Assembly (NCBI GenBank): GCA_030583785.1
Contig: CP129475.1
Location: forward strand, 479,559 to 543,558
Reading direction: 5' to 3'
Origin: Candidatus Dojkabacteria bacterium
Lineage (GTDB): Bacteria; Patescibacteriota; Dojkabacteria; B142; OLB20
Length of the DNA stretch: 64,000 nt
In this document: positions 30,269 to 46,835 of the stretch, one piece after another
How positions within the stretch are numbered: position 1 is the first letter of the stretch
How the letters are laid out: every line of letters begins with the position of its first letter
The notes under the pieces: model-generated
Seen by the model: the letters and a program-made list of their open reading frames with translations, nothing else
Database searches by the model: none
Told to the model about the DNA's origin: nothing
Translations under genes and position numbers: made by a program

Positions 30269-30386
30269 TCTGGCAATGACCTATTTTCCCAGCCAGCTTC
30301 CCGGCAAGTATCGTCGGCGCTGCTGCGTTTCACTTCTCTGTTCGGTATGGGAAGAGGTGGTGCCACAGCGCTACTATCACCAGACT
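30269..30386 (-). rRNA. 5S rRNA
   Basis: The reverse complement contains 'CCCATACCGAACAGAGAAGTGAAACGCAGCAGCGCCGA', the conserved 5S loop-B/helix-III region. The ends pair (TCTGGTG / GCCAGA). Confidence 0.8.
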
Positions 30387-30517
30387 TCCGATACTATAAC
30401 TAGCAGCGGATGTCTGTTGACAGACATTTTCTGAATAATTGATCACTGAACTTCATTCATCCGTGGAGGCAAATGTTTTGGGCGTAAATGTATTTTTGTT
30501 AAAACCATTCACACAAT

Positions 30518-33500
30518 AAGCTTTTTTTAAGCTGACGTCCAATTAGTTTCTCCTCGGCTACACACATTACTGTGCTTACACCTGGAGTCTATATACCCTG
30601 TTATCTACAGGGGGACTTAAAAGAATCCTCATCTTGGGATTGGCTTCACGCTTATATGCTTTCAGCGTTTATCCAAATAGCTACGTAGCTACCCAGCTAT
30701 GCCCCTGGTAGGACAACTGGTTCACCAGTGGTAACCTCACCTTGATCCTCTCGTACTGAAAGTCAATTCCCTCAAGATTCTAACGCCCACACCGGATAGA
30801 GACCAACCTGACTCACGTCGGTTTGAACCCAGCTCGCGTGCCGCTTTAATGGGCGAACAGCCCAACCCTTGGGAGCTTCTTCACCCCCAGGATGCGACGA
30901 GCCGACATCGAGGTGCCGAACCTTGCCGTCGCTATGAACGCTTGGGCAAGACCAGCCTGTTATCCCCGGGGTAACTTTTATCCTTTAAACAAAGACGCTT
31001 CCACACGCCATCTAAGGGTCACTATGTCCTACTTTCGTAACTGCTCGACTTGTCAGTCTCGCAGTAAAGCCGACTTATACCATTACGCTCTACAGCTGAT
31101 TTCCATCCAGCTTGAGTCGACCTTTGAAATCTTACGTTACTCTTTAGTAAGAAACCGCCCCAGTCAAACTGCCCACCTGACAATGTCTTTCAAACCGGAT
31201 TACGGTCGAAATAAGAAATAGAATAGCTTAAGGGAGGTGTTACATTGTCGACTCCACACCCGCTGACGCGAATGCTTCAAAGTCTCCCTCCTACGCTCTA
31301 CAAAAGGAACTCTATTCCAATGCCAAGATGCAGTAAAGATCCCGGGGTCTTTTTGTCCTGGTGTGGGTAGGCAGCATCTTCACTGCCATTTCAATGTTCG
31401 CCGAGCCCCTCGTTGAGACAGTGCCCAACTCGTTACACCTTTCGTGCGGGACGCCTATTAAGCGCCGAGGAACTTCGCTACCTTAGGACCGTTATAGTTA
31501 CAGCCGCCATTGACCAGGACTTAAGTCAGCAGCTTCTCCACCGAAGTGGATAACCGCCTTCCGTAATCTTCTGGCATTGGGCAGGTGTCAGCCCCTATAC
31601 TTCAGCTTGCGCTTTTGCAGGGACCTGTGTTTTTGTTAAACAGTCGATTGGGCCATTTATCTGCGCCCAGCAAATCCGAAGATCGCTGGGACCCCTTCTC
31701 CCTAAGTTACGGGGTTAAATTGCCGAATTCCTTAACGAGGGCTAACTCGTACACCTTGGTATACTCTACCAGAGTACCAGTGTCGGTTTGCGGTACGGTC
31801 AATCATGTATCTCACATAGAGGGTTTTCTAGTAGACAGAATATCTGAACTCGCCGCTTCCCGTAGGATTTGGCTCGTCGTAACAACTCGCGTTAGCGTTC
31901 TGCCGGATTTACCTAACAGAACTGGCTTGTTGCTTGAATGCTGACCTATCAGCACTTCAGAATCTCCTCTCCAGTCTCCCCATAGTTGATAACGATACAC
32001 GAATGGTTCCGGAATATTAACCGGATGTCCATCACCTACGCTTTTCAGCCTCGGCTTAGGACCGACTAACCCTTGGATGACTAACATGGCCAAGGAAACC
32101 TTACTCATTCGGTGTCCAGGTTTTTCACCTGGATTACGCTACTCATGCCTGCATTCTCACTTGTGTGCGCTCCAGTAAGTCTTACAACTACGCCTTCAAC
32201 GCACACACAACGCTCTCCTACCAATTATGGTTCACACAAAGAGTTCATAGTTATCTTACATAAAAACACTTTGTGTGAACCACAATTCCATTGCTTCGGT
32301 ACTATGCTTGAGCCCCGTTAAATTATCGGCGCAAGACCTCTAGACCAGTGAGCTGTTACGCACTCTTTAAAGGATTGCTGCCTCTAAGCAAACCTCCTGG
32401 CTGTTTATGAAATCTCACATCCTTCTCCACTTAGCATAGATTTAGGGACCTTAGCAGATGGTCTGGGCTGTTCCCCTTTTGACAAATGAAACTTATCTCC
32501 CACAGTCTAACTCCTGGTCTTACACACATGGCATTCGGAGTTTGAGAAGATGCCGTAAGGACGAATCCCCCGACGATCGAATCAGTGCTCTACCTCCATG
32601 TGCTACTAACCAAGGCCAACCCGAAAGTTGTTTCGGAGAGAACCAGCTATATCCGAGTTCGATAGACGTGTAACCTCTACCCACAAGTCATCCAAGAATT
32701 TTGAAACATTCACTGGTTCGGACCTCCCCTCGTATTTCTACGAGGTTCATCCTGCTCATGGGTGGCTCACTCGGTTTCGGGTCTATTATGCACCATAAAG
32801 TCGCCCTTTCAGACTTGGTTTCCCTTTGGCTCCACTGCTTAACAGTTTAACCGCACGGTACATAATAACTCGCAGGCTCATTCTTCAATAGGCACGCCAT
32901 CACACCAATAAATTGATGCTTTGACTGCTTGTAAGTATATGGTTTCAGATTCTATTTCACTCCCCTAACAGGGGTTCTTTTCACCTTTCCCTCACGGTAC
33001 TTGTTCACTATCGGTCACAAAAAGTATTTAGCCTTACCGGGTGGTTCCGGCAGATTCTCACGGGATTACTCCTAGACCGTGATACTTAGGTATGTAACTG
33101 ACAAGACATATAATTTTCGCATACAGGACTATTACCTTCTTTGGTTCGGCTTTCCAACCGTATTTTACTAATTATATGTTTGGTAACTTGTCTCGGTACT
33201 CGGCAGATTACCGTCGCTACACCCTACAACCCTTCACTGCAACCATCCCTGCCGGGACGACTTGACGACCTTGTCTGCAACGCAGACTCAGAAGTCTTGT
33301 CCTACCTGTGAAGTTTGGGCTCTTCCCCTTTCGCTCGCCACTACTTAGGGAATAACAATCTTTGTCTTTTTTCTTCCGGTTACTGAGATGTTTCAATTCA
33401 CCGGCTTACCTCTAACATGCCTATATATTCAGCATGTAGTAAATCTGTTTAAACAGAAGTGGGTTTCCCCATTCGGAAATCCCCGGATTAAAGCGCCTGT

Positions 33501-33603
33501 TGACGGCTATCCGAGGCTTATCGCAGCCTGCCACGTCCTTCTTCGGCTTTTTGTGCCAAGGCATTCACCATATACTCTTAATTGCTTATAAAAAAGCTTA
33601 TTT
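30518..33603 (-). rRNA. 23S rRNA (~3.09 kb)
   Basis: The reverse complement carries universally conserved 23S blocks, including 'GGATAACAGGCTG', 'GCGTAACAGCTCAC' and 'GGATGCCTTGGC'. The 5' and 3' ends pair (AAGCTTTTTT/AAAAAAAGCTT). ORFs listed inside it are spurious. Confidence 0.9.
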
Positions 33604-33632
33604 TCTACTCGTTCTTAACGAACATTAATTAC

Positions 33633-45075: not shown

Positions 45076-45149
45076 GTATTTAGTATCAACTAAAAAATTA
45101 TACTAGAGCAGATTTTAGCTAACCAGTATTATATCTGGAATTCTCAATA

Positions 45150-45181
45150 TAAAAAAAATACCACCTAGTTTAGGTGGTATT
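45150..45181 (-). terminator. Rho-independent terminator ~150 nt downstream of the 16S 3' end
   Basis: ATACCACCTA-GTT-TAGGTGGTAT perfect 10-bp stem followed on the minus strand by TTTTTTTT. Confidence 0.6.
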
Positions 45182-45328
45182 AATTGACAACAAAAAAGGT
45201 GACAGGCGTTCAACGCCAAGGTTAAAGGTTTTTGTTTACCTGAAGCATTCCAGCATCAGGAAGGGGTGGTCCAAAACGATAACTTTGCATTTTTACAACC
45301 CCATATGCAAAGTACCTTTTACTCCTTA

Positions 45329-46835
45329 GAAAGGAGGTGATCCAGCCGCAGATTCCCCTACGGCTACCTTGTTATGACTTAGCCCTGGTCGCCAGCCCTA
45401 CTGTAGTCCCCTCCTACGAGGAGCCGTCCAGTAAGACCAACTTCCGTGACTTGACAGGCGGTGTGTACAAGACCCGAGAACGTATTCACCGCGACATGCT
45501 GATTCGCGATTACTAGCAATTCCGACTTCATGCCGGCGAATTTCAGCCGACAATCTGAACTGAGACCATTTTTCTGGGATTAGCTCCACCTTGCGGCTTG
45601 GCAACCCTCTGTAATGGCCATTGTAGCGCTTGTGTAGCCCAAGACATAAGGACTATGATGACCAGACGTCGTCCCCACCTTCCTCCTCGTTTTGGCAAGG
45701 CAGTATCCAGAGTAATTATAACACTGGAGAGGGGTTGCGCTCGTTGCGGGACTTAACCCAACATCTCACGACACGAGCTGACGACAGCCATGCAGCACCT
45801 CTGTAGCGATCTCGAAGACCCTTTCCTTTTCGGGAAAGGTACAGCTACAGTTCAAGCCTTGGTAAGGTTCTTCGTTTAGCATCGAATTAAACCAAACGCT
45901 CCACTGCTTGTGCGGGTCCCCGTCAATTCCTTTGAGTTTTAAGCTTGCGCTCGTACTCCCCAGGCGCCCTACTTACTGCGTTAGCTGCGACACACAATAT
46001 GAACCCAAAATGACCTAAGCCAAATCGGAGATCCATATCATACATCTAGTAGGGATAGTTTACAGCGTGGACTACACGGGTATCTAATCCGTTTTGCTCC
46101 CCACGCTTTCGAGCCTTAGCGTCAGTCTAGACCCAGAAAGCTGCCTTCGCCATTGGTATTCCTCCAGATATCAACGCATTTCACCGCTACACCTGGAATT
46201 CTGCTTTCCCCTGTCTGACTCAATCCTAATAGTTTCTTATGCAATTCCGAAGTTGAGCCTCGGGCTTTCACATAAGACTTATCAGGTCGCCTACGCATCT
46301 CTTTACGCCCAGTAATTCCGGATAACGTTCGGCCCCTACGCATCACCGACCCTTCTGGCACGTAGTTAGGGGGGCCTTATTCATGTGGTACACTCAGAAC
46401 TTGTTCCCACATAAAAGGAGTTTACAACCCGAGAGCCTTCTTCCTCCACGCGGCGTCGCTGCATCAGACTTTCGTCCATTGTGCAAGATTCCTAATTGCT
46501 GCCTCCCGTAGGAGTATGGACCGTATCGCAGTTCCATTCTGACTGATCATCCTCTCAGACCAGTTACCCGTCATAGGCTTGGTGAGCCATTACCTCACCA
46601 ACAACCTGATAGGACGCAGGCCTATCCTCAAGCGACCAAAGCCTTTGATCCGAAGATCATATCCAGGATTAACTTTCCTTTCGGAAAGGTATCCTTGACT
46701 TGAGGGTAAGTTCCTACGCGTTACTCAGCCGTCTGCCACTAGAATTGCAGAGCAAGCTCCGCAATTCTCGTTCGACTTGCATACCTTAGGCACGCCGCAA
46801 ACGTTCATCCTGAGCCAGGATCAAACTCTTCATAA
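45329..46835 (-). rRNA. 16S rRNA
   Basis: The reverse complement begins AGAGTTTGATCCTGGCTCAGGATGAACG and ends ...GTAGCCGTAGGGGAATCTGCGGCTGGATCACCTCCTTT, including the anti-Shine-Dalgarno CCTCC. ORFs listed inside it are spurious. Confidence 0.92.

Follow-up and report, generated by a model that had tools for sequence, protein, structure and literature searches.

Probable in-place expansion of an rRNA operon in Candidatus Dojkabacteria, with a recurrent frame of RNA genes and varying protein-coding cargo

The ribosomal RNA (rRNA) locus of a 64-kb stretch of Candidatus Dojkabacteria DNA (contig CP129475.1 of assembly GCA_030583785.1; this whole stretch is called the window below) raises the question of what becomes of an rrn operon when protein-coding genes separate its 16S and 23S genes. 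Placement of the rRNA genes with Rfam cmscan and of the transfer RNA (tRNA) genes with ARAGORN gave the order of a canonical rrn operon on one strand, namely 16S, tRNA-Ile, tRNA-Ala, 23S and 5S (Table 1). The first-pass annotation agreed with both programs on this minus-strand order and on the coordinates, apart from the rRNA ends, which were off by 1-12 nt. The spacer, however, is not the short, tRNA-only spacer of a canonical operon. The 16S-23S separation, claimed to be ~11.7 kb, was measured at 11,738 nt and contains seven open reading frames (ORFs) in addition to the two tRNAs, all of them on the rRNA strand. With a probability of roughly 0.7, we favor a model where an ancestral rrn operon expanded where it stood and became divided into several co-oriented units of transcription, the RNA genes forming a fixed frame while the protein-coding cargo turned over.

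A recurrent frame with varying cargo

The 10-kb flanks of related loci were fetched using the gene for a DUF4870 protein as an anchor, and a LOG/methyltransferase fusion gene located beside their 23S served as a second anchor. The same frame recurred in these loci: ATP-ligase, DUF4870, a hypothetical gene, 16S, tRNA-Ile, tRNA-Ala, 23S-5S, a hypothetical 106-aa gene and S1. Both outer flanks are syntenic across Dojkabacteria, with the 106-aa gene and S1 lying beyond the 5S in the relatives. Expanded gaps with protein genes were found in at least six other Dojkabacteria contigs, measuring 5.5 kb in L024 (GCA_036746275.1, 1.1 Mb), 6.0 kb in L026 (JGI, 0.84 Mb), L037 (JGI) and L040 (JGI), 7.0 kb in L020 (ENA, 0.96 Mb) and 8.3 kb in L034 (JGI, 81 kb). 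Two more loci, L030 (NCBI) and L031 (JGI), end 7.4 and 7.5 kb past the 16S, respectively, without having reached a 23S. The cargo flanks the tRNA pair on both sides in three of these expanded relatives, and the gap of the window is the largest case among the loci examined. As the 16S genes of the relatives are only 82-88% identical to that of the window, the frame must be old.

The cargo, in turn, differs from genome to genome. In the relatives it includes, among others, genes for dCTP deaminase, DUF998, inositol phosphatase, GNATs, NUDIX, polysaccharide deacetylase and a Trp-repressor-like protein, and none of the cargo of the relatives was found anywhere in the 64-kb window. The five-ORF block that separates tRNA-Ala from 23S in the window was not found in the loci of the relatives, the one exception being a weak match to ORF89 in L040. 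Several cargo genes of the relatives are on the opposite strand, as seen in L020, L024, L026, L034, L037 and L040. In WS6 OLB20, the nearest other species with a 16S identity of 94%, an MFS transporter gene and not a sigma gene directly follows the 16S terminator. In the one Dojkabacteria genome analyzed by Lui et al. (2021), by contrast, 16S and 23S form a compact operon and are only 386 nt apart, with two tRNAs between them (PMC8172020), and the expansion therefore happened within the class.

These comparisons change what the first-pass annotation had made of the locus. Its proposal that the operon had been expanded rather than simply split stands as far as in-place expansion is concerned, given the flank synteny, the kept RNA order, the differing cargo and the relative with the 386-nt spacer; the accompanying picture of a single operon carrying insertions is probably wrong. 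The arrangement had also been called unusual, with the reservation that it would not be novel if the lineage carried it routinely. Since at least six relatives have expanded gaps, it is routine for the lineage, and protein genes in the spacer had already been described for the Candidate Phyla Radiation (CPR).

One could suspect that the assembly had fused separate rRNA-bearing loci, as rRNA genes are classic points of breaking and joining in metagenome assemblies and many Logan contigs of this species stop at the tRNAs or within the 23S. We give this explanation hardly any credit. L004 (NCBI GCA_001567305.1) independently covers the locus from the 16S to the beginning of the 23S, including the sigma/anti-sigma pair, both tRNAs and all five ORFs. 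It is 99.7-99.8% identical to the window, and the same anti-sigma protein is present in that assembly. Two Logan contigs bridge the internal junctions at 99.8-100% identity, L005 reaching from the sigma gene to the 23S start and L001 from ORF551 to the 23S, and the same frame is found in other species on contigs of 0.08-1.1 Mb. Independent assemblies thus reproduce the junctions, and misassembly, the caveat attached to the original observation, is excluded. Compared with the window, L004 has one additional A in each of the A-runs at its positions 5415, 10284 and 11228 (window 41506, 36638 and 35695), which splits ORF551, ORF89 and ORF655. These frameshifts are most likely homopolymer sequencing errors and not signs of pseudogenes, because the Logan contigs of the same species have intact frames.

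Signals for one or several transcription units

The predicted signals suggest how the locus may be transcribed. A first unit would consist of the 16S, which has a conserved promoter and a boxA-like box in front of it, a processing stem around it and an intrinsic terminator behind it. A second would hold an extracytoplasmic function (ECF) sigma gene and its FecR-type anti-sigma partner, likewise closed by a terminator. The tRNA-Ile/tRNA-Ala pair would start from a separate promoter-like site and form a third unit, which probably reads into a tightly packed operon of five genes for lineage-restricted proteins. The 23S-5S would be the fourth; its promoter is conserved in the lineage, and it has boxA, a processing stem and a terminator as well. 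The frame made up of RNA genes and signals would then be inherited class-wide, and the protein cargo of the two gaps would turn over between species, being represented here by a native sigma/anti-sigma module and five fast-evolving near-orphan genes.

For the 16S unit, an alignment of seven Dojkabacteria 16S leaders showed conservation of both the -35 and the extended -10 elements. The relatives carry GCTCTTTAACAA at the position of the boxA-like element, the copy in the window being degenerate. The duplex between the 16S leader and trailer was predicted at -72.6 kcal/mol, compared with -48.1 +/- 5.2 for shuffled sequences. The hairpin with T8 previously claimed after the 16S was located, and it directly follows the 3' strand of the 16S processing stem. 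Most relatives have a hairpin and a T-run 145-265 nt after the 16S, including loci where tRNA-Ile follows without an intervening ORF. A metagenome scan using the 16S-trailer stem motif found nothing.

The leader of the 23S carries a set of conserved elements. The extended -10 TGATATTAT was found at -255 to -265 from the 23S in seven further metagenome contigs, and the AAACCTCTAC box in 10 of 11 further contigs at -199 to -213. The boxA-like element claimed before the 23S was also located. Its sequence, TGCTCTTTAATAA, agrees at 12 of 13 positions with the E. coli boxA consensus; it is the sole site in the window with one mismatch or less to this consensus, and the relatives conserve GCTCTTTnAnAA. 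The hairpin of the 23S leader is conserved with one compensatory pair change. In the 23S-5S spacer, GTGATCAATTATTCAG (30446-30431) is perfectly complementary to positions 33687-33672, and the duplex between 23S leader and trailer reached -84.6 kcal/mol against -40.6 +/- 4.7 for shuffles. Relative to the 23S, the positions of all these leader elements are constant in three genomes and in another 10-11 metagenome contigs. Like a canonical rrn operon, the locus has boxA elements and leader/trailer stems around both the 16S and the 23S. Upstream of tRNA-Ile, a TATAAT-type -10 was seen in L019, L020, L024, L026, L031 and L034.

The same elements could be read as parts of one giant 16.6-kb operon running from the 16S promoter to the 5S, in which boxA antitermination would act past the internal hairpins and the protein genes would be translated on the rRNA precursor itself or after being cut from it. 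The co-orientation of the seven ORFs, both tRNAs and the three rRNAs agrees with this, as do the boxA-like elements in the 16S and 23S leaders, and Lui et al. class same-strand spacers with tRNAs and ORFs as 'operonic' (PMC8172020). However, we consider such an operon unlikely, as the strong terminator (11-bp stem, T8) stands right after the 16S stem and recurs there in most relatives, while a second, GC-rich terminator follows the anti-sigma gene. In addition, antitermination in rrn operons works mainly against Rho-dependent termination, which counts against a giant operon. Across more than 10 contigs, the promoter-like element of the 23S is conserved and keeps a constant distance to the gene. 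In the relatives, the gaps hold opposite-strand genes, one of them just upstream of the 23S leader, so that their 23S must start from its own promoter, and the window retains the same 23S leader.

Several points nevertheless weigh against a stretched operon broken into separate units. All promoters and terminators named here are sequence predictions, and a scan found the promoter-like and terminator-like sites of the region not to be above those of shuffled sequence, so that only the position and the conservation of the signals carry weight. The -35 hexamer of the tRNA promoter is weak (3/6), and loci of the L026/L037/L040 type have no clear terminator within 300 nt of the 16S. Every gap gene of the window is on the rRNA strand, unlike in several relatives, and boxA-type antitermination could allow some read-through or partial co-transcription. 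On the side of the cargo, a single-sequence AlphaFold2 prediction of ORF551 gave an unusable model with a mean predicted local distance difference test score of 40. That the signals function, and hence that transcription is truly split, we infer from their sequences. With these points taken into account, the probability given above for the in-place expansion and break-up of the operon is the one that we retain.

Table 1. Features of the rRNA locus in transcriptional order (positions in the window)
Feature	Position	Strand	Basis or remark
16S promoter-like element, TTGACT-18-TAAAAT with TG extension	47072-47101	-	Sequence scan
boxA-like element AGCTCCTTGACAA	47010-46998	-	16S leader; overlaps 5' strand of 16S processing stem
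16S processing stem, 5' strand	47002-46983	-	Perfect 20-nt complement of 45206-45187
16S rRNA	45330-46836	-	Rfam RF00177, 1429 bits, model positions 1-1533, full length
16S processing stem, 3' strand, CCTGTCACCTTTTTTGTTGT	45187-45206	-	Same motif after 16S in relatives
Predicted intrinsic terminator after 16S, 11-bp stem and T8	45149-45181	-	Sequence scan
ECF sigma factor, 188 aa	44509-45075	-	Pfam Sigma70_r2 and r4_2; NCBIfam TIGR02937, 93.7 bits (cutoff 42.9)
FecR-domain anti-sigma-like protein, 576 aa, with Ig-like and fn3-like extracytoplasmic domains	42762-44492	-	Pfam FecR, Glucodextran_B
Terminator-like GC-rich hairpin after anti-sigma gene	42717-42743	-	12-bp stem, 10 GC pairs, then TTAGTTT
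Promoter-like element upstream of tRNA-Ile, TTGCGC-17-TATAAT	42666-42694	-	Read from the sequence; -35 under scan threshold
tRNA-Ile (GAT)	42565-42639	-	ARAGORN; Rfam tRNA 66.4 bits
tRNA-Ala (TGC)	42404-42480	-	ARAGORN; Rfam tRNA 69.9 bits
ORF551, first of block	40676-42331	-	No family match; intact in L001, L002, L005
ORF1264	36827-40621	-	Near-orphan; called 1262 aa from ATG at 40615 in other assemblies
ORF89	36528-36797	-	Open reading frame call
ORF655, acidic	34561-36528	-	Hydrophobic segment near residue 500-535
ORF217, last of block	33902-34555	-	Open reading frame call
23S promoter-like element, TTGTGT-18-(TG)aTATTAT	33851-33880	-	Lineage-conserved (alignment)
AAACCTCTAC box in 23S leader	33788-33797	-	Invariant in alignment of 23S leaders
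boxA TGCTCTTTAATAA in 23S leader	33688-33700	-	Motif scan
23S processing stem, 5' strand	33650-33687	-	Includes conserved hairpin CAYGAAC...TTCRTGGAGG
23S rRNA	30523-33591	-	Rfam RF02541, 2587 bits, model positions 1-2925, full length
23S processing stem, 3' strand	30431-30470	-	In 23S-5S spacer
5S rRNA	30268-30384	-	Rfam RF00001, 85 bits
Terminator-like hairpin and T8 after 5S	30234-30259	-	ATCTACC-GTAA-GGTAGAT then TTTTTTTT; read from the sequence, unlisted by scan

Nature and origin of the inserted genes

The gene pair lying between 16S and tRNA-Ile had been annotated as an ECF sigma/anti-sigma pair, and Pfam and NCBIfam domains support this (Table 1). The FecR-domain gene starts 16 nt past the sigma gene, and its product is a single-pass protein with one transmembrane segment at approximately residues 66-93. 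The pair has the build of an ECF module, a group-4 sigma factor with regions 2 and 4 only being followed by a membrane-spanning regulator with predicted anti-sigma activity. Orthologous pairs occur in other Dojkabacteria, with 38-43% identity for the anti-sigma and 44-54% for the sigma protein; those of L027 and L029 are far from any rRNA gene, and that of L032 is again directly upstream of tRNA-Ile and tRNA-Ala. The pair is native to Dojkabacteria. Its placement beside the tRNAs is common to a subclade and not recent, since a relative with an anti-sigma protein of only 43% identity has the pair in the same position.

Between tRNA-Ala and 23S, the five same-strand ORFs of unknown function described earlier (33902-42331) were found at the coordinates given, and none had a match in Pfam, NCBIfam, PHROGs, PADLOC or PDB sequences. 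Successive ORFs are separated by 54, 29, -1 and 5 nt and probably form one operon; no terminator was found between tRNA-Ala and ORF551, and the operon is possibly fed by the tRNA promoter. ORF1264 is a near-orphan. A word-index search of a collection of 5.8 G proteins returned a 91% ortholog as its sole full-length relative, and a full HMMER scan of 1.84 G cluster representatives returned this ortholog and just two weak partial matches. The block ORFs are nevertheless real genes under some constraint, because the 3.8-kb frame of ORF1264 is unbroken in L003, a relative at ~5% nucleotide divergence, and the ratio of nonsynonymous to synonymous substitution rates (dN/dS) against this 95%-identical relative is 0.66 for ORF1264 and 0.32 for the C-terminal half of ORF551.

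Two details of the block stand on their own. ORF89, the only member with a detectable Dojkabacteria relative outside the species group, has a weak homolog in L040 (2466-2660; 34% over 68 aa, E = 2e-7), which is located beyond the 5S of that locus and adjoins the conserved 106-aa gene. ORF655 contains three tandem 18-nt repeats (35829-35887) encoding a short acidic, Pro/Thr-rich repeat (...DDPTPDIDSTPADAPTPD...).

The position of the block could point to a recent mobile or horizontal insertion, the five ORFs having entered as an island at the tRNA-Ala 3' end and the sigma pair through a second insertion. The block begins 72 nt after tRNA-Ala, its proteins are near-orphans, and the 12-mer GCTCCACCAAAT, made of the tRNA-Ala 3' end and 3 nt of flank, has a second copy directly before tRNA-Ala. 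On the same strand, this 12-mer occurs only at 42401-42412 and 42482-42493, on the two sides of the tRNA. L004, L005 and L006 also show a 79-nt indel at the tRNA-Ala 3' end with an 8-bp CTCCACCA repeat at its borders. A recent insertion is, however, very unlikely. Domain searches detected no integrase, recombinase, transposase or phage gene among the seven ORFs, and no direct repeat was found at the distal end of the block, with none near 33900. Composition is host-like, the GC content at third codon positions being 0.30-0.37 in the cargo and 0.27-0.33 in host genes, and overall GC is likewise indistinguishable from that of housekeeping genes. No conspecific assembly lacks the block, and the 95%-identical relative carries it too. 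The sigma pair has Dojkabacteria orthologs, and its placement must be old, as the pair is found at the same place in a relative with an anti-sigma protein of only 43% identity. A genomic island as the main explanation was rejected for the lack of flanking repeats and of an integrase and for the host-like composition.

The extra 79 nt are located right after tRNA-Ala in the sister strains (L005 2830-2908). Recombination at the tRNA end may have left them as a scar, or the difference may go back to a simple microhomology deletion. The former would fit a 'cargo bay', in which the gaps beside the tRNA pair would repeatedly take up and swap lineage-specific genes, perhaps by recombination at tRNA ends, and the cargo would be expressed from tRNA/rRNA promoters, with read-through into a boxA-protected 23S leader. 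The GCTCCACCAAAT repeat and the strain indel give a hint of such recombination, but we regard the scheme as a whole as quite doubtful. If true, it would tie an envelope-stress sigma system and a fast-evolving five-gene operon, the latter possibly acting in host interaction, to the growth-rate control of ribosome synthesis.

A candidate tRNA-like remnant in the 84-nt spacer between tRNA-Ile and tRNA-Ala was discarded. The spacer folds into an acceptor-like stem and two hairpins, resembling a tRNA without a D-arm, and this fold is not significant (z of only -1.2); no Rfam tRNA match was obtained at E values up to 10.

Relation to known rRNA loci and neighboring features

Unlinked and ORF-containing rRNA loci are already known in CPR bacteria, and the window overturns nothing in this respect. 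Lui et al. (2021) found 16S and 23S unlinked in 27 of 34 circularised CPR genomes and distinguish loci 'Operonic by tRNAs and ORFs' from those 'unlinked by distance', for which the threshold is above 2 kb (PMC8172020). The window resembles their CPR spacers in its phylum and in having co-oriented protein genes within a 16S, tRNAs, 23S order. Their same-strand cases hold one or two ORFs, often homing endonucleases, over 1-2.2 kb (PMC8172020), whereas the window has seven ORFs over 11.7 kb, none of which is a homing endonuclease; its cargo flanks the tRNA pair on either side, and terminators and promoters are predicted within the gap. With only same-strand tRNAs and ORFs in its gap, the window falls into their class C, but its intergenic distances of 254, 122, 72 and 310 nt reach, with the largest, the range of 300-500 bp flagged by these authors as ambiguous (PMC8172020). 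Class D, unlinked genes with opposite-strand genes intervening, does not describe the window and does describe L020, L024, L026, L034, L037 and L040. [quoted passage not shown] That organism, a CPR episymbiont, likewise has protein genes in the gap, but it belongs to a different class and carries different cargo.

Distance alone would make these genes unlinked. Brewer et al. (2020, ISME J) reportedly set the limit at a 16S-23S distance above 1,500 bp, and the 11,738 nt measured here are far over it; the small genome and the probably host-dependent lifestyle are further points in common with unlinked genes of this type. In the classic unlinked cases (Helicobacter, Rickettsia, Buchnera, Borrelia and Thermus), a long distance separates the 16S from the 23S-5S, and the spacer tRNAs have not stayed in order between them. 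The window, unlike these, keeps order, orientation and both outer flanks, which argues for in-place expansion and not for dispersal. The canonical E. coli-type rrn operon has boxA antitermination and RNase III processing stems. The window shares with it the gene order, the tRNA-Ile/tRNA-Ala pair, boxA-like boxes, long stems and a terminator after the 5S, and differs in a spacer that is ~30 times longer, in its seven protein genes, and in the predicted internal terminators and promoters.

Full-text literature searches gave no description of this arrangement in Dojkabacteria. What is added here is the size of the gap (seven genes, 11.7 kb), a class-wide fixed frame with variable cargo, and conserved internal promoter, boxA and terminator signals. 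The range of spacers within one class, from 386 nt to 11.7 kb, should allow the stepwise break-up of an rRNA operon to be studied in a series that retains RNA gene order, processing stems and boxA elements while the operon comes apart. It also raises the question of whether balanced 16S/23S output survives the loss of co-transcription with a single rRNA copy. In practice, long-read amplicon methods that target the full operon (16S, internal transcribed spacer and 23S) will miss this organism and its relatives.

The 16S gene itself is divergent at the 530 loop, which contains the 515F primer site (46342-46376, minus strand), with GTGCCAGAAGGGTCGGTGAT instead of the near-universal GTGCCAGCMGCCGCGGTAA and six substitutions over the segment corresponding to E. 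coli 515-536. Positions 505-507 are CCC and positions 524-526 are GGG; as the former compensate the latter, the 530 pseudoknot is kept through flipped pairs. An exact scan for GTGCCAGAAGGGTCGGTGAT in 185,579 species-representative genomes returned nine contigs, five titled Dojkabacteria or WS6 (one being WS6 bacterium OLB20), three titled 'bacterium' and one 'Saccharibacteria'. An affiliation with oral TM7 (Saccharibacteria) was rejected, since the TM7 probe sites carry mismatches and both this 16S signature and the annotation of proteins indicate Dojkabacteria (WS6; CPR/Patescibacteria). Given the six substitutions, standard primers for variable region 4, and surveys based on them, likely miss these organisms.

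The 23S of the window, at 3,069 nt, is ~140 nt over the Rfam model length and has no large insert. By BLAST coordinates, the 23S genes of L034 (4537-8406) and L042 (2475-6843) cover 3.9 and 4.4 kb, which implies insertions of ~0.8-1.4 kb, probably introns like those reported for CPR rRNA genes (reports cited in PMC9297842).

The fusion gene used as the second anchor encodes a protein of ~431 aa combining LOG/lysine-decarboxylase-like and S-adenosylmethionine methyltransferase parts. In many Dojkabacteria (L020 18056-19354, L024 17473-18768, L026 16900-18195 and also L033-L040), it directly adjoins the upstream end of the 23S leader in divergent orientation, with 68-72% identity between genomes, and it is absent from the entire 64-kb window. 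Distant homologs of the fusion in L041 and L043-L047 have no rRNA gene in the flanks at hand, which are long for L044 and L045 only. A sensor histidine kinase gene (28859-30214, plus strand) lies in the window between the 5S terminator and the 106-aa gene/S1, and tblastn found no homologue of it in the locus of any relative.

The rRNA locus described here was the only one seen in the window. The DUF4870 protein encoded shortly before the 16S has an identical counterpart on a 1.17-Mb contig, where it is annotated as 'Candidatus Dojkabacteria bacterium'. Other genes of the window encode Rho, RadA, a Clp ATPase, S1, an ATP-dependent ligase, Fic, PolA and FtsH, and this gene set, with a GC content of 39%, is compatible with a small CPR genome. 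Bacteria uncommonly carry a tRNA-Ile(UAU). A tRNA-Ile with the anticodon TAT was found at 59220-59294 (plus strand), right after a tyrosine recombinase (Phage_integrase) gene at 58219-59094 (plus strand), and two genes of the tRNA-Met(CAT) type are located nearby at 56180-56255 and 57574-57648.

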